DNA of 64,000 nt. Source: Candidatus Woesearchaeota archaeon (lineage in GTDB: Archaea; Nanobdellota; Nanobdellia; SCGC-AAA011-G17; JACPIM01). The DNA lies in NCBI GenBank assembly GCA_964513145.1, contig CAZELK010000002.1, positions 18,413 to 82,412 on the forward strand. Direction: 5' to 3'. Made by a program: the position numbers and the translations under genes. Positions within the stretch are counted from its first letter, which is position 1. Each line of letters begins with the position of its first letter. Positions 3,945 to 17,814 of the stretch are shown one piece after another. Under the pieces are notes generated by a model. That model saw only the letters and a program-made list of their open reading frames with translations. It was not told where the DNA came from and ran no database searches.

Positions 3945-9479
<5,535 letters not shown>

Positions 9480-9514: not shown

Positions 9515-9877
9515 TTATGATTTTAAAACCCTTTTTATTCTTTTTGTAAAAAATATGCTTAGTTTCTCTGGTTCTTCTAAACTCATATAAATAATTTTAT
9601 CTATTTCTTTAGCTAATTCCTCTTGAAAAGTTATAATCTCTTTTGGTATTGAAACAACATAGCTATTTCCAACAAACCTCAGCTTTACATTAAATTCCTT
9701 TCTTTTCAATTTTTCAAAATTATTATACTCTTGTAAATCTAAGGGATGAAACCATCTTTTATGACAATTGTTGCACTCCCATGATCTTAATTTAAAACCA
9801 TCTTTAAGTACAAATCCTTTAGTTGTCTTTCTATTGCAATTTTCGCATAAAATTGTTGTATCATATATATCGGCCAT
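9515..9877 (-). CDS. Zn-ribbon (CxxC...CxxC) + swapped-hairpin (AbrB/SpoVT-like) domain protein; paralog of 32091..32432 and 45766..46110
   Basis: CENCNRK...CNNCHKR, then KLRFVGNSYVVSIPKEIITF. I place the start at the internal Met (MADIYD); the longer track ORF reads through an AT-rich promoter. Confidence 0.45.
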   Translation of the reverse strand: MADIYDTTILCENCNRKTTKGFVLKDGFKLRSWECNNCHKRWFHPLDLQEYNNFEKLKRKEFNVKLRFVGNSYVVSIPKEIITFQEELAKEIDKIIYMSLEEPEKLSIFFTKRIKRVLKS

Positions 9878-10027
9878 ATTTAAATTAAATGTATATATTA
9901 AGTATATACAAGAAATATATAAATATTTCGGTAATAAGGGCTTTGCACAAGTTAGGCATTTCTGCACAAGAATAGAATTTGTAATTGAAGTTAATAACAG
10001 CAAAGTATTATAAAATTTTAAATGAAA

Positions 10028-10267: not shown

Positions 10268-10517
10268 TAAATACCACCATATAATCTTTTAATTAATAAA
10301 ATAGTTGTAAGCACAATTAAAAGAAACATAATTATCATTAAAACTTTAAGAAAAAATGCATTAAACTTTTCTAATCTTGTCTCACCAAAATCATTTTCAA
10401 TAAATTTATCCATAAAAAGTATTATTATTCTCTTCTTAATAACTTTTACTCAAGATTTTTCGCAAGAAATCCGAAACAATCCGTTTAAATCTGAATCTCT
10501 TGGATTTTAGCCGGGAT

Positions 10518-11204
10518 TTATGAAATAATTTTGTCGCACCAAATGCAACCCTCTTTAGGGCAATCAGAATTAAGCAATTTTAGTGCTTTCCTAAACAAAT
10601 ATTCTGCATTTTCAACATTAGTATTCCTTCTTGCCAAAACAGTATCAAAAATTACTTGTCCTGTTTCCAAAACTTCTTTTGGGATATAAAATAACAAGAA
10701 AGCAAAATCCTCTGTTTCAAATCCATTCTTTCTTAATAAAAAATTATAAAAATCCAGTTGGTTCTGGTAACTATTGCCAGATTCAGTTTCATTCTTTATA
10801 GGATAACCTTTTGTTTTGTAGTCAAGAACAATTAATTTTTTGCCATTAACTAGGATATTATCAACTGCCCCAGATAAAATATTTCCATTTTCATCTGTCC
10901 ATCTTATTCCTTTTAAGTTGTTTCTCCATACTTTCAAAAGTTCTAAATCATCAAATAATTTTAATCCTTTTGTATGGTGGTGGTCTTTTATTTCAGGGGG
11001 TAATTCTCCTTTGTCTCTAAATTTGTCAAAATGGGTTTTAATTATTTTGTCCATACCATTTGGCAATTGGGGAAATGGTGTTTCTGGTCTTTTCCAAATT
11101 TTATGTTTATCTAGCCAGAAACAACGAGAACAAGATAACATTAAATTTATAGAAGAAGGGGATAACTTGTACACCTGTTCTGCAGCACCTTCTTGAATTT
11201 TCAT
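10518..11204 (-). CDS. Cas4/RecB-like PD-(D/E)xK nuclease with Fe-S cysteine cluster (orphan, no CRISPR nearby)
   Basis: Motifs in order: N-terminal CSRC, motif II GAVDNIL, motif III VLDYKTKG (D-x-K), QNQLDFY (QxxxY), and C-terminal CPKEGCIWC. Confidence 0.65.
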   Translation of the reverse strand: MKIQEGAAEQVYKLSPSSINLMLSCSRCFWLDKHKIWKRPETPFPQLPNGMDKIIKTHFDKFRDKGELPPEIKDHHHTKGLKLFDDLELLKVWRNNLKGIRWTDENGNILSGAVDNILVNGKKLIVLDYKTKGYPIKNETESGNSYQNQLDFYNFLLRKNGFETEDFAFLLFYIPKEVLETGQVIFDTVLARRNTNVENAEYLFRKALKLLNSDCPKEGCIWCDKIIS

Positions 11205-11241
11205 CTTTTTTATAAAATTAATGCAATATATAAATCTTAGT

Positions 11242-11276
11242 CAGGTCTTTGTCTTGTCCAGTAGGTTTTGTCCAGT
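11242..11276. repeat. left copy of a perfect 35-bp inverted repeat (caggtctttgtcttgtccagtaggttttgtccagt)
   Basis: Its exact reverse complement is at 16855..16889, with imperfect extension by a few bp on both sides. It contains an internal direct repeat ACTGGACAA x2. Confidence 0.9.
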
Positions 11277-11281
11277 AATAT

Positions 11282-11536
11282 TTAAGTTTTCAAATCTTTA
11301 ATTTGATTGGATAAATTGTTTAGATTGACATTAGTTTTTCTATAAATATAATAAACTGTGGAGCAAATAATAGCCAAAATAGCAGAATAAATAAACCATT
11401 TTTCAAAATTTAAAATTAGACCGCCCAAAAAAGTGATTACGCTCCAGATACCTAAGCTTAAAGTAGCGTTTAAAATTTGCAAGTTTTTCTGATATTCCAA
11501 ATCTAAACAGTTTTTTTGTAAATGTATTTTGTTCAT
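11282..11536 (-). CDS. small membrane protein
   Basis: 84 aa with TM segments. Confidence 0.35.
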   Translation of the reverse strand: MNKIHLQKNCLDLEYQKNLQILNATLSLGIWSVITFLGGLILNFEKWFIYSAILAIICSTVYYIYRKTNVNLNNLSNQIKDLKT

Positions 11537-11682
11537 TTTTCAGAAGTTATAATACCAATCCCTATTCCTATCAAAATTATTCCTGTAATAACATAAGGTA
11601 TATTTTGTGTATTCAGATTTATAAAGTACAAACCTAAAAGAATAGCAACTACGCCGCCACCCATTTTTATTGGATTTACCAT
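11533..11682 (-). CDS. small membrane protein (49 aa), not in ORF track
   Basis: ATG at 11682. Translation is MVNPIKMGGGVVAILLGLYFINLNTQNIPYVITGIILIGIGIGIITSEK. It overlaps the downstream start by ATGA. Confidence 0.3.
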   Translation of the reverse strand: MVNPIKMGGGVVAILLGLYFINLNTQNIPYVITGIILIGIGIGIITSEK

Positions 11683-12076
11683 AATATTAAAAAAGAAAGG
11701 TCTTTAATAAATCTTATGTAATAATTCTCGAAAAATTTCCAGAATTTATAAGAAATAATAAAAGTTTTTCGAAATTTTAGTTAGAATTCGTTTCTTCTTT
11801 TTTATCTTTTTTTCTCATATCAAACCATAAGTTTAGTAAATCATTCACATCTTCTTTTTTATGTTCTTTTTTCTCTTCTGCAATGAATTTACCTAATTTC
11901 TTCTCTTTGGGAACATATTTTACCTGGTTAAACTTTCGTTTTCCTCCACCCATATAATAATTCAAAAAATAGTAATTTTTAAGCTTTTCTAATACCTGCT
12001 TTGCACATAAATTAATCCTTTTTAATACCCAAAGGTTTATTTTAGTTGGGCTTTAATAAGATTTGTAGAATTTAAA

Positions 12077-12703
12077 ATGATAACAACAGGAATTAAAGAG
12101 TTAGACGATTTAATACAGGGTTATAAAGAAGAATTAAACCTCATCTACGGTCCTCCGGGTTCAGGAAAAACAACCTTATGTAAATTAGTGGCAATTAATT
12201 TGCTAAATAAAAACAAAAAAGTCATATATATTGATACTGAAAACGGCTTTTCATTAGAAAGATTTAGGCAATTATCAGATAATTATGAGAAAATATTGGA
12301 TAATTTAATTTTAATTAAAGTTAAAAGTTTTGAAGACCAGTGTATAAAAACAGAAAATTTAGTAGAAATAAAAAAAATAAGTCTTGTAATAATAGACTCA
12401 ATAGGTAAATTTTACAGAAGCGAAGTAAAGGAAGATCCAAAAGAAATAAATAAAAAATTCATTTCTAATTTAAATTCTTTAAGAACAATATCAAAAAATA
12501 ATATACCAATAATTATAACAAATCAAATCTATGCAGATTTTAATGACAATAATAAAGTAATACCCCTGGGTGGAAAAATAATCCAAAATTTCTGTAAAAA
12601 AATTATTGAATTAAAAATCTCTCCAAGAAGATTAATACAAAAAAAACCAGAAGAAAAAGAAATGCTGTTCGAAATAAATGAAAAAGGGATAATAAAAGTT
12701 TAG
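12077..12703 (+). CDS. radB: RadB-like RecA-family ATPase
   Basis: ITTGIKELDDLIQG...GPPGSGKTTLC Walker A; about 208 aa, typical of archaeal RadB. Confidence 0.7.
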   Translation: MITTGIKELDDLIQGYKEELNLIYGPPGSGKTTLCKLVAINLLNKNKKVIYIDTENGFSLERFRQLSDNYEKILDNLILIKVKSFEDQCIKTENLVEIKKISLVIIDSIGKFYRSEVKEDPKEINKKFISNLNSLRTISKNNIPIIITNQIYADFNDNNKVIPLGGKIIQNFCKKIIELKISPRRLIQKKPEEKEMLFEINEKGIIKV

Positions 12704-15024
12704 ACTTGTTTCTTTTTTCTTCCTATTTTTGATTTTTCTTTCATTTGCTCATCTTTATTTTTAGGAGTTTCTTTTTCTTCCGTAGTTTTTCCCTGATGAG
12801 TTTTATCTTCGTTTTTTGGTAAAGCTTCTGTCGTTTTTCCATGAAGGCTTTTGTCAAAAGGCTTGGCCCAAGCTTCTTTAGATTTGCAATTTGGTGTTAA
12901 GCATAATTTCCATGGTCTTTTTCCAGCCCTAATAACCAAAACTTGGTAAAAGTTGCATTCTTTGCATTTTTCTTCCAATTTTTTTATCAATCCATTTCTT
13001 GGTAAAGAATAAATGTTCTTACATTCTGGATAGCTTGAACATCCTACAAATTTGCTTTTTGTTTTGGGAGAATATAATATTTTCAGGTTTCCTTTCTCGC
13101 ATTTAGGGCATTGCCCAAGTGTATTAGTATCTTCTTCTGTTTTTCTTTGTGAGACTAATAATTCTTTTCCAATATCAGTTTCATGTTCTTTAAATTTATC
13201 AAAAATTTTAATTAAAGTTTCTTTGGCTTTTCCTAAAATTTCTTGCTCATCAGCTTTTCCTTCCCTTATTTTCTCCATTTCTTTTTCAAAATGTCTTGTC
13301 AATTTTTCATCAATAATTTCTTCAGAATATTTTTGCAAAGTATCGATTAATTTTATTCCCAATTCAGTTGCTTGAATAGAATTGTCTTTAATGTAATTTC
13401 TTTGATATAATGTATCCAAAATAGCTGCGCGAGTACTTTTTGTACCTAAAAATTTTTTATCAAGTTCTTTAATTATTGAAGCTTGTATATATCTTTTTGG
13501 TGGTTGTGTCTCTTTGTTTTCTATTTTAATTTCTTTAACTTTTACTTCTTCCATTTCTTTCAATTTAGGAAGTTCAACGTCCTTAGACAAAGCATATTTT
13601 CCATAATATTTTTGCCAGCCTTTTTCTAAAGTTATTGTTCCAGAAACAGAAAATAATTCGTTGTTTACATCAATATTTAAAGTATTAGTTTGTTTTTTAG
13701 CAGGTTCGCCAAAAGTGCTTAAGAATCTTCTGACAATTAAATCATATAATTTAAATCCTTTTCCATCCACTTTAGCAAATTCCCCAGTGGGATGCACGCT
13801 GGGATGGGCAGGATCAGATTTTTTTCCTTCATTTGGAATTAATACATTTTTATTCAACAATTCAGAACAAATTTCTTCATAATTATTGTTTTTCTTTAAT
13901 TTTTCAAATATTTTTTTAAAATTCAAAGCACTGGGCAGCTTTTGCGATGAAGTTCTGGGATAAGAAATATATCCATTTATATACAAATCTTGCGCAATAC
14001 TTAAAGTTTCTTTGGGAGATATATGTAAAGTCCTGTATGCTTCTACTTGTAAAGAAGTTAAATCAAATGGATAGGGTGGTTCTTGTAAAAACTCTCTTTT
14101 AGAAATTTTTTTAATAAATGCTTTATTTCCTTCAGTATTTTTTAAAATTGTTTCAGCTTCTTTCTTATCCCAAATATCTCCTTTAATATGCCCAGCAGTA
14201 AATTTATCTGATATTAAATTTACCAGCCAAAAGGGAACTGGTTTAAAATTTTGAATTTCCTTTTCTCTTTTTACAATTAAATTTAAGGCTGGCCCCTGAA
14301 CCCTTCCGCTTGACATTAATTTAAATGCTCCGGCGCTTTTTATTGCCAACGTCAAAGCTCTTGACATATTTATCCCCCATATCCAATCCATAATATGCCT
14401 AGTTTCACCTGAGTAAGCTAAAGGAAAATCAAGATGTTTTTTAACATTTTTATAACTATCAATTAAATCATCTTTTGTTAAAGTTGAGAACTCCATCCTC
14501 AACCCATCTTTTTTATTAAAAATATATCTTAAAATATTCCATCCAATAACTTCTCCCTCTAAATCCTTATCAGTAGCAACAATGAATTCATCAGCATCTT
14601 TACTTAATTCTTTTAGAAGATCAAAATATTTTTGTGTGTAAGCAGACTTTTTCTTAACCTTAAAACTTTCTCTCCATTCAACATCAAAAACAGGATACTT
14701 TGATCCTTCTTTCTTTTTTTCTGCTAAATTAAATAAATGTCCTACAGTACAACAGACAATAACTTTTTTTCCTTTTATTTGAATATTATAATAAGGCACT
14801 CCATCTTCTTTGTAAGCTGTTACTTTGCCGTCAGCTAAAGAATCTGCTATTTTCAAAGCTGCTGATGGTTTCTCGCATAAAATTAATTGTGTCATAAAAT
14901 GCCCAAATATAAGACATTTATTAAATTTTTGCTTAAAAGATTTTGTATAATTAACTAAGGCTAAGAAATTTGAGTAATCCAAAACCCCAAATTTTGGCAG
15001 TTTTAAATAAGAAAATTTTTCCAA
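12700..15024 (-). CDS. topA: DNA topoisomerase type IA (TopA/Topo III-like) with C-terminal Zn fingers
   Basis: Toprim (LILCEKPSAA), active-site Tyr motif GYISYPRTSS, and C-terminal CPKCEKG...CSSYPECKN. Confidence 0.85.
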   Translation of the reverse strand: MEKFSYLKLPKFGVLDYSNFLALVNYTKSFKQKFNKCLIFGHFMTQLILCEKPSAALKIADSLADGKVTAYKEDGVPYYNIQIKGKKVIVCCTVGHLFNLAEKKKEGSKYPVFDVEWRESFKVKKKSAYTQKYFDLLKELSKDADEFIVATDKDLEGEVIGWNILRYIFNKKDGLRMEFSTLTKDDLIDSYKNVKKHLDFPLAYSGETRHIMDWIWGINMSRALTLAIKSAGAFKLMSSGRVQGPALNLIVKREKEIQNFKPVPFWLVNLISDKFTAGHIKGDIWDKKEAETILKNTEGNKAFIKKISKREFLQEPPYPFDLTSLQVEAYRTLHISPKETLSIAQDLYINGYISYPRTSSQKLPSALNFKKIFEKLKKNNNYEEICSELLNKNVLIPNEGKKSDPAHPSVHPTGEFAKVDGKGFKLYDLIVRRFLSTFGEPAKKQTNTLNIDVNNELFSVSGTITLEKGWQKYYGKYALSKDVELPKLKEMEEVKVKEIKIENKETQPPKRYIQASIIKELDKKFLGTKSTRAAILDTLYQRNYIKDNSIQATELGIKLIDTLQKYSEEIIDEKLTRHFEKEMEKIREGKADEQEILGKAKETLIKIFDKFKEHETDIGKELLVSQRKTEEDTNTLGQCPKCEKGNLKILYSPKTKSKFVGCSSYPECKNIYSLPRNGLIKKLEEKCKECNFYQVLVIRAGKRPWKLCLTPNCKSKEAWAKPFDKSLHGKTTEALPKNEDKTHQGKTTEEKETPKNKDEQMKEKSKIGRKKKQV

Positions 15025-15127
15025 AAGAAGTTTTATTTATAAATCCTTAATTAACTTTACAGAGCCGCTTAAAATCTAAAATAGAATGTAGAAAGATTTA
15101 AAGGGTTCTTATTATTATTTTTAAATA

Positions 15128-15880
15128 ATGAAATCTAAAATTATGAATTCTTATGAGACTTTTGGAGAAATATATTATGAATCAAGAAAGAAAAAAAATG
15201 GAATAAGCTATTTTTACAATGAAAATCTTGAGATGCCTGCAACTTTAAAATTATTAGGTAATGTTAAGGGAAAGAAGATTCTGGATGTTGGCTGCGGTCC
15301 GGGAATTTACGCCAGGATTCTTACTGAAGCAGGAGCGTCTGTAAAAGGCATAGATTTCTCTAAAAAATTTATATCAATTGCAAAAAATGAAGCACCAAAA
15401 GCATTATTTACATTAGGGGATGCAGAAAAATTACCATACCAAAACAAAGAATTTGATATTGTTTTGTCAACATTAATGTTGGGCCATTTTGAAAATTGGG
15501 ATAATATATTTTCTGAAATAAAGAGAGTTCTGAAAAATAATTGTATTTTCATATTTTCAATAAAAAACCCAATTACTTCCAGCATGCAAAAAAGAAAATG
15601 GTTCTTTAGATCATTCAGGGAAGTTGTTGATTACTTTAATGAAAAATGGGTTTCGAATAAATGGAGAAGGGAAAATAGGGGAAATACCATAACATCTTAT
15701 GTGTCAGAACATCATAAAACATACAGCACTATAATCAAGACAATTATAAAAAATAGTTTTGAGATTATTGATTATGAAGATGCAAGGCCTTTGTTAAAAG
15801 CAAAAAATCTATTCCCAAAAGAATACAAAAGAACAATTAATATGCCACATTTTTGTATATGGAAACTTAGAAAGAAATAA
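15128..15880 (+). CDS. class I SAM-dependent methyltransferase
   Basis: Motif I ILDVGCGPGIYA; Methyltransf_11-like. Confidence 0.7.
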   Translation: MKSKIMNSYETFGEIYYESRKKKNGISYFYNENLEMPATLKLLGNVKGKKILDVGCGPGIYARILTEAGASVKGIDFSKKFISIAKNEAPKALFTLGDAEKLPYQNKEFDIVLSTLMLGHFENWDNIFSEIKRVLKNNCIFIFSIKNPITSSMQKRKWFFRSFREVVDYFNEKWVSNKWRRENRGNTITSYVSEHHKTYSTIIKTIIKNSFEIIDYEDARPLLKAKNLFPKEYKRTINMPHFCIWKLRKK

Positions 15881-15957
15881 ATTATCCTATTACTAAATTA
15901 CTATTTTTTGTAAAACTTCTTTTAGTCCTTGATTAAACTTTTTCTAAGGGTTTAAAA

Positions 15958-16076
15958 TGGGCCCGATCAGATTTGAACTGACGGCCGCTCGATTATCAGT
16001 CGAGTGCTCCAATTGTCCATACTTTTAGTTTTGCCAAAGCTTTTCCTAAAAGCTTTCCAGACTAAGCTACGGGCCC
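15958..16076 (-). tRNA. tRNA-Ile (anticodon GAU) with a ~45-nt insertion between D-loop/D-arm and anticodon stem
   Basis: Acceptor GGGCCCG/CGGGCCC; anticodon arm CTCGA-CTGATAA-TCGAG; T arm GTCAG-TTCAAAT-CTGAT. Gene is 119 nt versus about 74 mature. The insert contains the hairpin AAAGCTTTT-AGG-AAAAGCTTT. Confidence 0.7.
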
Positions 16077-16128
16077 ATAAAGGAAACACAATTATTTCAT
16101 TTATTAAATTTTGCATATAAAAATTGAT

Positions 16129-16512
16129 TTAAAAATCAGTTAATTTAGAAAGTCTTCCTGAAACTTTGCCAGTAAAATACCTTGAGTCTTTTGGGATAAG
16201 GGGCACATAAACAGGATCTAGCTCTATTCCTAAATATCTGGCTTTGGTATAAATATGGCCTAGAGCATAGCAATAAGAATCACGTACAATTTTATTAGCT
16301 TGCCTGAAAACAGCGATTTCACAAATTAAATCTTCAACAAATCCCCGCATTTTTTGCTCTATATTATTCATCTTCCTATTAACAGATAATTTAGCAAGAT
16401 CATACCTTCCTTCAGTCTTATGTTTAGTAATTTGAAATGATTTAGATTGTTTCAATTTTGTAACTAAATCATCTATTGAAGTTATCCTTGATTTAAGTTC
16501 TTTTTTATCCAT
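16129..16512 (-). CDS. hypothetical protein
   Basis: 127 aa ORF, no recognisable motif. Confidence 0.35.
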   Translation of the reverse strand: MDKKELKSRITSIDDLVTKLKQSKSFQITKHKTEGRYDLAKLSVNRKMNNIEQKMRGFVEDLICEIAVFRQANKIVRDSYCYALGHIYTKARYLGIELDPVYVPLIPKDSRYFTGKVSGRLSKLTDF

Positions 16513-16538
16513 AAACCCAATATAAAAAAGAAAGGCTT

Positions 16539-16700
16539 TTAATCCTTCCTTTTTTTCGTTCTAAAAGCCCTTATTAAATCATCAGGGCATCTGGTTGTTT
16601 TATAGCAATTAGGGCAGATTAAGATAGGGTTATCAGCATCAAACTTATAAGGTCCCATAAAATTGTGGCATCCACATTTACATGTAAATTCATATTCCAT
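16539..16700 (-). CDS. small Zn-ribbon protein (53 aa), not in ORF track
   Basis: MEYEFTCKCGCHNFMGPYKFDADNPILICPNCYKTTRCPDDLIRAFRTKKRKD; multiple Cys pairs. Confidence 0.3.
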   Translation of the reverse strand: MEYEFTCKCGCHNFMGPYKFDADNPILICPNCYKTTRCPDDLIRAFRTKKRKD

Positions 16701-16854
16701 TATTAATAAAAATCAAACTAATTATTTAAAGAAAAGCTGTATAAATTAATACTTTATTTTCTAAAAAATACAGATGCATATATTTTTGTTAAAAACTTTC
16801 AAAATAAAATTTTGTACTACTATTAAATTATTACTTCTACTATTTATAAATACC

Positions 16855-16889
16855 ACTGGACAAAACCTACTGGACAAGACAAAGACCTG
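16855..16889. repeat. right copy (reverse complement) of the 35-bp inverted repeat
   Basis: actggacaaaacctactggacaagacaaagacctg is the exact reverse complement of 11242..11276. Confidence 0.9.
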
Positions 16890-16946
16890 CCTAGCACTTT
16901 TAAAGTAAATTATCTTTTTACAATATAAGAAAAAGTTAAAAACATT

Positions 16947-17192
16947 TTGTCAAACTTTTTCAAAAAAATCGGAGGTACTAAAATGATAATGCAATTATTA
17001 AGCAAAAAAGAAGACAAATACATGAGTTGGGAAGAGTATAAAAAAAGGATGATAGAAATGCAGGTAATACATCTTATAGAGCAGTTCATCAAACAAGATT
17101 CAAGTTATAGTTATGATGATCTAGAAAATTTAGACATAGCAAGATTTAAACAAATTGGGGGTGTTAAAAATGCAGGGAATATATTCGAATGA
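16947..17192 (+). CDS. hypothetical protein; the first ATG is at 16983 and the track start at 16947 is TTG
   Basis: 81 aa ORF with the 35-bp repeat in its upstream region, in the same orientation as for the Cas4-like gene. Confidence 0.35.
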   Translation: MSNFFKKIGGTKMIMQLLSKKEDKYMSWEEYKKRMIEMQVIHLIEQFIKQDSSYSYDDLENLDIARFKQIGGVKNAGNIFE

Positions 17193-17318
17193 GTTTAGGG
17201 AAGAGTTAATAGATGATGATGAGATCTCAGCAGAAGAATATTTTTTTATGCTTGGATATGAATCTGAAGATTTAGATTTTTAAATTTTATTTTTTTATTT
17301 AATTTATAAAAATTAAAA

Positions 17319-17612
17319 ATGAATGAATTAAATTTTAAAGATAAATTTGAGAAAAATATAATCCTAACACTAGAACGAATAAAACATATAAGTCTTCATA
17401 TTCAAGTAAATAATTATATTTCAATCATTGAGAATACGTTAAAATATCCGGAGATTTTATCAAAAGACTCTGAAAAAAATATATATTATTACCAAAAATA
17501 TTTAAAGTTAGAGAACATATATTTTATAATAGTAGTTAAACTTACTAATGAAGAGGGTTCGATAATAACAGTTTATAAAATGCAAAACCAAAAAAATGAA
17601 ACAAAAAATTAA
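17319..17612 (+). CDS. putative toxin, DUF4258/RelE-fold-like
   Basis: 97 aa with C-terminal NIYFIIVVKLTNEEGSIITVYKM beta-strand pattern. It overlaps the downstream DUF2283-like gene. Confidence 0.35.
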   Translation: MNELNFKDKFEKNIILTLERIKHISLHIQVNNYISIIENTLKYPEILSKDSEKNIYYYQKYLKLENIYFIIVVKLTNEEGSIITVYKMQNQKNETKN

Positions 17613-17814
17613 AATATTGTATGATGAGGAAGGCGATTATTTAGAAATAAATTTAAGGAAAACTAAAGATACTTATTTTGATGAAATAAAAAAAGATTTT
17701 GCTCGAATTTTAGAAACAAAAACAAATAAAATTGTAGGTTATGCAGTTTTTAATTTTACAAAACAAAAAAACAAACCTATTGAAATCGAGATACCGACCG
17801 TAATTTCAGCTTAG
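17596..17814 (+). CDS. DUF2283-family protein (putative antitoxin partner)
   Basis: KILYDEEGDYLEINL pattern typical of DUF2283. Confidence 0.5.
   Translation: MKQKIKILYDEEGDYLEINLRKTKDTYFDEIKKDFARILETKTNKIVGYAVFNFTKQKNKPIEIEIPTVISA

Follow-up and report, generated by a model that had tools for sequence, protein, structure and literature searches.

A 35-bp inverted repeat in a Woesearchaeota chromosome as two copies of a putative, lineage-specific promoter cassette

Putative mobile promoters (PMPs) are homologous sequences of ≥50 nt at ≥80% identity that occur within ~100–150 nt upstream of the translation starts of coding sequences (CDSs) that lack homology to one another (PMC3488235). This analysis concerns a perfect 35-bp inverted repeat in a 64-kb stretch (hereafter the window) of the chromosome of a Candidatus Woesearchaeota archaeon (contig CAZELK010000002.1), the arms of which lie 5.6 kb apart, each ahead of an outward-facing gene. 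The arms are probably oppositely oriented copies of a promoter cassette of ~100 bp, not a dedicated DNA-flipping switch, and the reading that we favor, as the likelier account of the locus, is a shared and lineage-specific promoter that bears an operator or upstream activating site (UAS) for a putative binding factor and that would have spread between loci. The cassette resembles the PMPs (PMC3488235) in that similar sequences of 50–100 nt lie within ~150 nt of non-homologous genes in several copies per genome, are common to related species, and often have transposase-type genes downstream. The identity and length of the copies in JACPNF01, a related Woesearchaeota metagenome-assembled genome (MAG), the distance to the start codon, and the non-homologous downstream CDSs all agree with the published definition, and the window's own pair is borderline for its threshold (47 nt at 93.6% identity, or 87 nt at 79%, depending on the alignment). 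Unlike the PMPs, the cassette is archaeal (DPANN), has an explicit geometry of TATA box and TFB recognition element (BRE) with presumably leaderless starts, carries a phased pair of boxes whose conservation at an orthologous gene amounts to a phylogenetic footprint, and has a cargo dominated by endonucleases.

Regulon motifs in other archaea include the ARA box of Sulfolobus, the TGM of the Thermococcales (TrmB family), the Ptr2 sites of Methanocaldococcus, and the DNA-damage hexanucleotide (Orc1-2). As in such UAS and operator regulons, the cassette places a short motif at a fixed distance upstream of BRE and TATA in several promoters per genome, which implies one trans-acting factor. Unlike them, the cassette has a non-palindromic motif, a direct repeat phased at 14 nt. 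Conservation runs through the entire promoter and takes in the two TATA boxes; this argues for propagation by copying in addition to selection. A literature search found no prior description of the cassette, and we know of no cis-regulatory regulon described for the Woesearchaeota or other uncultured DPANN archaea. The cassette adds to a known kind of element and represents no new class of mechanism.

The two copies in the window

The window is archaeal chromosome of ~28% GC that encodes a CDC48 with inteins, along with RadB and the topoisomerases IA and VI A/B. The 35-mer ACTGGACAAAACCTACTGGACAAGACAAAGACCTG occurs in it exactly twice, at 11242–11276 (−) and 16855–16889 (+), with no third copy in the 64 kb even when up to three mismatches are allowed, and 100 dinucleotide shuffles gave an expectation of zero chance matches. 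The perfect inverted repeat of the original prediction was thus recovered, as was the continuing similarity around it, which is weaker and extends to 87 nt (11198–11284 aligned to 16847–16933). The predicted internal direct repeat with 14-bp spacing also holds: the half-site ACTGGACAA is present four times in the window, always at the 14-nt distance and inside one of the two 35-mer copies. Searched with an nhmmer profile of the cassette, the window gave these two copies and nothing else. The left copy and the gene that it faces comprise:

11242..11276, minus strand: left 35-mer (hidden Markov model (HMM) match of the cassette at 11285-11212, E=7e-14)
11276-11268, minus strand: left box 1, ACTGGACAA
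11262-11254, minus strand: left box 2
11253-11245, minus strand: 9-nt spacer, GACAAAGAC
11244-11237, minus strand: CTGACTAA block, the beginning of which is taken in by the 35-mer
11227..11234, minus strand: proximal TATA box TTTATATA, 20 nt past box 2 and 22 nt ahead of the nuclease ATG at 11204
10518..11204, minus strand: PD-(D/E)XK (Cas4-like) nuclease of 228 aa (Pfam PF12705; phrog_31195)

The right copy and its genes, including a short open reading frame (ORF), comprise:

16843..16850, plus strand: distal palindromic TATA, TTTATAAA
16855..16889, plus strand: right 35-mer (HMM match of the cassette at 16835-16929, E=2e-20)
16855-16863, plus strand: right box 1
16869-16877, plus strand: right box 2
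16878-16886, plus strand: spacer
16887-16894, plus strand: CTGCCTAG block, the beginning of which is taken in by the 35-mer
16898..16905, plus strand: proximal TATA-like box TTTTAAAG, 21 nt past box 2
16983..17192, plus strand: gene for a 69-aa helical protein, function unassigned, with GGAGG at 16971-16975
17170..17283, plus strand: 37-aa ORF overlapping the 69-aa gene; the two are kept together in relatives (gene calls L081 and L088-L092; L numbers are our handles for loci and contigs)

The left copy had been placed ahead of a TATA-like box and the minus-strand nuclease, and this arrangement stands, with TTTATATA followed 22 nt on by the ATG; such a distance matches leaderless geometry, and the nuclease mRNA is probably leaderless. 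Transcription from the right cassette would start near 16928, giving the 69-aa gene an mRNA with a predicted leader of ~55 nt that contains the GGAGG site. A small ORF does follow the right copy, but its start is more likely the ATG at 16983, behind GGAGG, than the previously proposed TTG at 16947 (ORF 16947..17192), because all orthologues begin MIMQLL. The opposite orientation of the two copies would merely follow from the presence of two outward-facing genes.

Dispersal, geometry, and conservation among relatives

A pattern scan for ACTGGACAA-N5-ACTGGACAA over 185,579 species genomes returned 56 loci, among them nine double boxes on nine contigs of JACPNF01 and one in JAGWAC01, and a scan of metagenomes added ~10 further double-box contigs of 28–32% GC. 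The copies from JACPNF01, JAGWAC01, and the metagenomes all share the flanks TTTATAAAaccc...gtCTGcCTAAnnCTTATAAA. Most of the 56 genome loci were set aside as unrelated GC-rich tandem repeats (minisatellites of Sphingobacteriales, Bacteroidales, Massilia, and others). Neither the pattern scans nor nhmmer with the cassette profile found a true cassette in IMG/VR viral contigs. Pairwise identity between cassettes within JACPNF01 is 79–95% (mostly 87–94%) over 41–106 nt, mostly 58–100 nt, and an all-against-all blastn of oriented loci limited the similarity between loci to about −20..+85 around the boxes. A separate observation concerns an unrelated freshwater contig of 44% GC (L074, Ga0114972_10261455), at the end of which (920–1041) the window's 14-mer ACTGGACAAAACCT forms a tandem array of at least eight copies, probably a coincidental minisatellite.

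Read toward the gene, the cassette has the order TTTATAAA-N4-ACTGGACAAAACCC-ACTGGACAA-N9-CTGyCTAR-N3-TTATAWA-aAAttATCTTTTa, with a length of ~85–105 bp, two ACTGGACA boxes at a 14-nt period, a variable 9-nt spacer, and an AT-rich 'aAAttATCTTTTa' zone. The motif keeps its distance to the core promoter constant across several promoters, as box 2 lies 20–21 nt from the proximal TATA in 20 of 21 cassettes. The distance from the end of the TATA to the start codon is 22–24 nt for the nuclease, the TnpB genes, and several genes for LAGLIDADG-like proteins; small ORFs have leaders of 40–150 nt with GGAGG, and the range over all cassettes with a callable ORF is 10–148 nt. A distance of 22–24 nt is the geometry expected of leaderless archaeal mRNAs. 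At L019/L073 a divergent gene has its ATG 24 nt from the distal palindromic TATA, which indicates that the cassette can be bidirectional. A subfamily of cassettes additionally has a CCGAAAA-N(1-3)-TTTTCGG palindrome ~45–55 nt upstream of the boxes (L039 at ~7841, L069 at ~2198, L077 at ~2297). This palindrome might serve as a hairpin, either terminator or insulator, or as an additional protein site; it occurs upstream of some JACPNF01-type cassettes only, is not found at the window copies, and never follows the cargo.

Many dispersed copies had been expected to mark a generic repeat. Copies are indeed numerous in relatives, but all are promoter-positioned and gene-oriented, which argues for a regulon or a mobile promoter over a generic repeat. 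The earlier proposal of an operator shared by the nuclease and the small protein fits these observations but is too narrow, given the at least nine copies in JACPNF01 and the fixed TATA and start geometry.

Behind the cassette lie genes of two TnpB (OrfB_IS605) families, the remnant of a TnpB gene, and genes for several LAGLIDADG-like proteins, of which some carry an HTH domain at the N terminus; the other products are a NUMOD3/DUF559 nuclease, the window's PD-(D/E)XK nuclease, and small proteins of 61–69 aa and 91–105 aa, of which the 91-aa protein had no Pfam, PDB, or PHROG match. The TnpB and homing-endonuclease-like genes in these reduced genomes would therefore share one promoter type. 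The TnpB copies L011 and L032 are 92% identical from −133 to +710, which places the cassette inside a repeated TnpB element. This recalls the left-end promoters of IS200/IS605 elements, since the cassette drives tnpB in relatives and in L011/L032 lies inside the unit, downstream of a hairpin-like palindrome; unlike those left ends, it also drives LAGLIDADG-like, NUMOD3, PD-(D/E)XK, and small-protein genes. Identity with an IS200/IS605 left end was rejected for the window, where the copies have no tnpB, subterminal hairpin, or right end; such features were found only in relatives (L011, L032, L048, and L077).

The range of cargo raises the question of whether the cassette is a landing pad, i.e., a promoter-equipped, integron-like archaeal site for recombination or homing behind which selfish nuclease genes insert and exchange. 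Positional counterparts fit such a site. On the left, the window has the cassette followed by the nuclease, a 79-aa and a 162-aa protein, and CDC48, where L048 of JACPNF01 has the cassette followed by TnpB, a homologue of the 162-aa protein, and CDC48; on the right, the cassette, the 69-aa operon, and Top6A in the window correspond to the cassette, a TnpB remnant, and Top6A in L068. The cargo is also strongly enriched for endonucleases. However, all-against-all blastn revealed no conserved 3′ boundary or second recombination site past the cargo, the cassettes have no associated integrase, a start codon 22–24 nt past the TATA leaves no room for an attachment site, and the cassette of L011/L032 lies within the repeated TnpB unit and not outside it. 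Recombination among the dispersed cassettes, or insertions that occurred independently, would account equally well for the differences in cargo, and a landing pad is regarded as improbable. A side observation at L068 (2213–3223) and L054 is that the cassette drives only a short N-terminal remnant of TnpB (MKKKEKITYKFRLYP...), with a 262-aa gene on the opposite strand; the presence of the remnant behind a syntenic cassette indicates that cargo was replaced and decayed there.

Five further lineages keep the cassette upstream of their orthologue of the 69-aa gene, and every orthologue with a readable context has it (L088-L091, L092, L009, and L071). What is retained is the two TATA boxes, the pair of boxes at a 14-nt period, and CTGyCTAR, and what drifts is the N4, inter-box, and N9 spacers, a pattern that is the phylogenetic footprint of what appear to be discrete protein-binding blocks. 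No such combination of conserved motif and drifting spacers was found at the nuclease. Its promoter in L150 has a degenerate cassette, ATTGGACAA, with a 13-nt period, one box ATTGGACA, and no CTGCCTAA block, and no cassette precedes the nuclease in L083-85, L086, or L087. Conservation at the 69-aa orthologues and patchiness at the nuclease suggest that the right operon had its cassette ancestrally and that the left cassette was acquired later and is less constrained. The N9 spacer is GACAAAGAC in both copies of the window. Orthologues of the right copy have ACCGAGGAT, TCGCGGGGA, and TTTCAAGGA instead, and the L150 orthologue of the left copy has ACAGCGGAC. As the left cassette is older than the split from L150, the identity of the spacers is best explained by recent gene conversion between the inverted copies, which would also account for the 35-bp identity.

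Combined, these features suggest how the favored promoter would function. The proximal TATA would recruit TBP/TFB and RNA polymerase, with CTGyCTAR in the position of the BRE, and the two phased boxes, at about −45 to −70 from the start, would be bound by a putative sequence-specific factor, possibly an activator, that co-regulates all cassette-bearing genes. Upstream activating sites of archaea classically lie in this region. As a 'mobile promoter', the cassette would have reached unrelated genes, in part within TnpB insertion elements, and copies within one genome would be homogenized by gene conversion. The cassette offers a concrete putative promoter and operator, of which the 35 bp are a defined probe for a factor pull-down.

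Several points weigh against the favored reading. The 69-aa protein, a speculative candidate for an autoregulator, has few relatives (eight close homologues), no PDB match, only weak Pfam and PHROG matches, and an AlphaFold2 model that is helical but of low confidence (pLDDT 59) and uninformative. The distal TATA is missing from the left copy, where CTTAAATA stands in its place. The degenerate cassette at the nuclease in L150 and its absence in L083, L086, and L087 indicate that regulation of the nuclease by the cassette is not ancient. An identity of 87–94% over ~80 nt within JACPNF01 exceeds the needs of an operator, such that recent spread may explain much of the conservation, and the 64 kb of the source genome that were searched contain two copies.

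Two other functions for the element were considered, origin recognition boxes (ORBs) for Orc1/Cdc6 and a structured small RNA, and both are extremely improbable. The sequence CCACTGGA, which is present in JACPNF01-type copies, resembles the reverse complement of the ORB core, TCCAGTGGA, and the cassette of L009 adjoins an Orc1/Cdc6 gene. But the bases before ACTGG vary (CC, CT, TT, GC, CA), which means that an ORB-like dyad is not conserved; the copies of the window are 5.6 kb apart with genes between them and flank no AT-rich unwinding element; JACPNF01 has at least nine gene-oriented copies per genome; and the cumulative GC skew takes no turn across 8–20 kb. As for an RNA, the consensus structure that RNAalifold derived from 16 cassettes has −3.95 kcal/mol and zero covarying pairs, and Rfam had no match at either copy. 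The lack of a consensus fold and of covariation argues that the element acts as DNA.

The 5.6-kb segment and the question of inversion

The original prediction offered a second explanation, in which the pair serves as a substrate for inversion of the segment between the copies. This segment holds RadB, topoisomerase IA, and a methyltransferase, as predicted and now supported by ORFs and Pfam, and the predicted tRNA-Ile is real but contains an intron:

11277..16854: segment between the copies, 5.6 kb, of housekeeping content and outside the cassette
12077-12703, plus strand: RadB
12700-15024, minus strand: topoisomerase IA
15128-15880, plus strand: methyltransferase
~15958-16076, minus strand: intron-bearing tRNA-Ile(GAU), anticodon loop CTGATAA read from the sequence
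Elsewhere in the segment: an 84-aa ORF and other small ORFs, a 127-aa ORF, and a 53-aa ORF

The intron of the tRNA is ~45 nt long and lies in the D-arm region; the Rfam score is 24.5 against a threshold of 29 bits, and ARAGORN reported no tRNA anywhere in the 64-kb window. In the relative L083, intron-rich tRNA genes occupy the matching position.

That the segment lies between perfect inverted repeats, and that the cassette occurs inside TnpB elements of relatives, could suggest that a transposon or some other mobile element carries the 5.6 kb, with the repeats as its inverted termini. However, the segment consists of single-copy housekeeping genes (RadB, topoisomerase IA, tRNA-Ile) in the same order and orientation as in the cassette-free L083, where RadB (+) and TopA (−) are arranged relative to CDC48 and Top6A as in the window. 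It contains no transposase, the outer flanks (cttagt and cctagc) show no target-site duplication, and the repeats, as promoters, point toward genes external to the segment. A transposon is extremely improbable, and the synteny with L083 effectively refutes it.

Homologous recombination between the copies, with the segment present in both orientations in natural populations, would be compatible with a role as promoter; as the explanation for the repeat it is unlikely, though the least unlikely of the alternatives considered. Exact-protein look-ups retrieved Logan contigs of the same strain, assembled at k=31, which is too short to resolve a repeat of 35 bp. A single contig (L065/L080, SRR12113384, 1589 nt) joins 16081..16893 to 11284..10462, the inverted junction; it could be a real variant or a k=31 chimera and is a lead, not proof. 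The identical, fast-evolving spacer that points to recent gene conversion is also consistent with exchange between the copies, as is the nuclease on the opposite strand in L083. Additionally, the synteny of L068 (Top6A 91% identical) breaks exactly at the cassette, with TyrRS-agmatinase-LigT upstream versus TopA-MTase-tRNA in the window. On the other side, the contigs of better-covered samples are broken at the repeat itself, those of SRR12113424 and SRR12113420 precisely 30 nt inside it on the recovered arms (all four in SRR12113424), and at low coverage the clipping of tips may join the wrong arms; L065 requires the other two arms to be missing from its sample under either arrangement. The reciprocal junction, from the 84-aa side to the 69-aa side, was not found among the Logan contigs retrieved, and the orientation of the window is backed by L064, a short k=31 contig that spans it, and by L083. 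Occasional homologous inversion is plausible, given the apparent gene conversion and the synteny breaks at cassettes. Contigs repeatedly end at the cassette, which makes it a marker for rearrangements and assembly breaks in these MAGs.

A programmed invertible switch, as a stronger form of this idea, is far less likely. The locus resembles invertible segments (Hin/Gin, fim, shufflons) in that inverted repeats flank a segment and one contig has a flipped junction. Unlike those systems, it has no dedicated recombinase, encloses 5.6 kb of housekeeping genes, and has its promoters outside the crossover point. The ORF list and Pfam scans revealed no recombinase or invertase gene between 8 and 20 kb in the window. 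A crossover within the 35-mer would fall upstream of both TATA boxes, leaving each gene with its own core promoter and boxes; neither promoter would be rewired or reconnected to other genes, and hence there is no logic of phase variation. The promoter cassette remains the favored reading. An extension of it would be a DPANN circuit in which one factor, either of the host or selfish and possibly the 69-aa protein, co-controls mobile endonuclease genes (TnpB, homing-endonuclease-like, and PD-(D/E)XK) and in which the copies are hot spots for gene swaps and rearrangements, including the inversion of the 5.6-kb RadB-TopA segment; we consider this doubtful.

Neighboring genes

The nuclease family is strongly conserved in DPANN, with 2353 homologues at 65–87% identity. 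Restriction-modification or defense genes are neighbors of the nuclease in three of five contexts (L086, L087, and L150 among the relatives), namely GmrSD/HNH with a type I restriction-modification system, an MmeI-like enzyme, and the pair of an MvaI/BcnI endonuclease and its methyltransferase. These neighbors and the match to phrog_31195 make a defense-linked or mobile role of the nuclease possible. Further along the minus strand, 9515-10003 encodes a zinc-ribbon protein with a weak AbrB/MazE-like domain, which may be a DNA-binding candidate and which adjoins CDC48 in all relatives (L048, L083, and L150), whether or not a cassette is present. The ORF of the CDC48/VCP ATPase (3945-9479, minus strand) spans 1844 aa with several intein insertions that contain homing-endonuclease-like domains; its orthologue in L083 has 1440 aa, which indicates that intein content varies among close relatives.

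On the plus strand beyond the 69-aa operon, overlapping ORFs of 97 and 72 aa (17319-17814) form a toxin-antitoxin-like pair with weak matches to DUF4258 and DUF2283, and the syntenic gene in L092 matches PBECR2. The pair takes the place of other cargo that is found between the 69-aa operon and Top6A in relatives.

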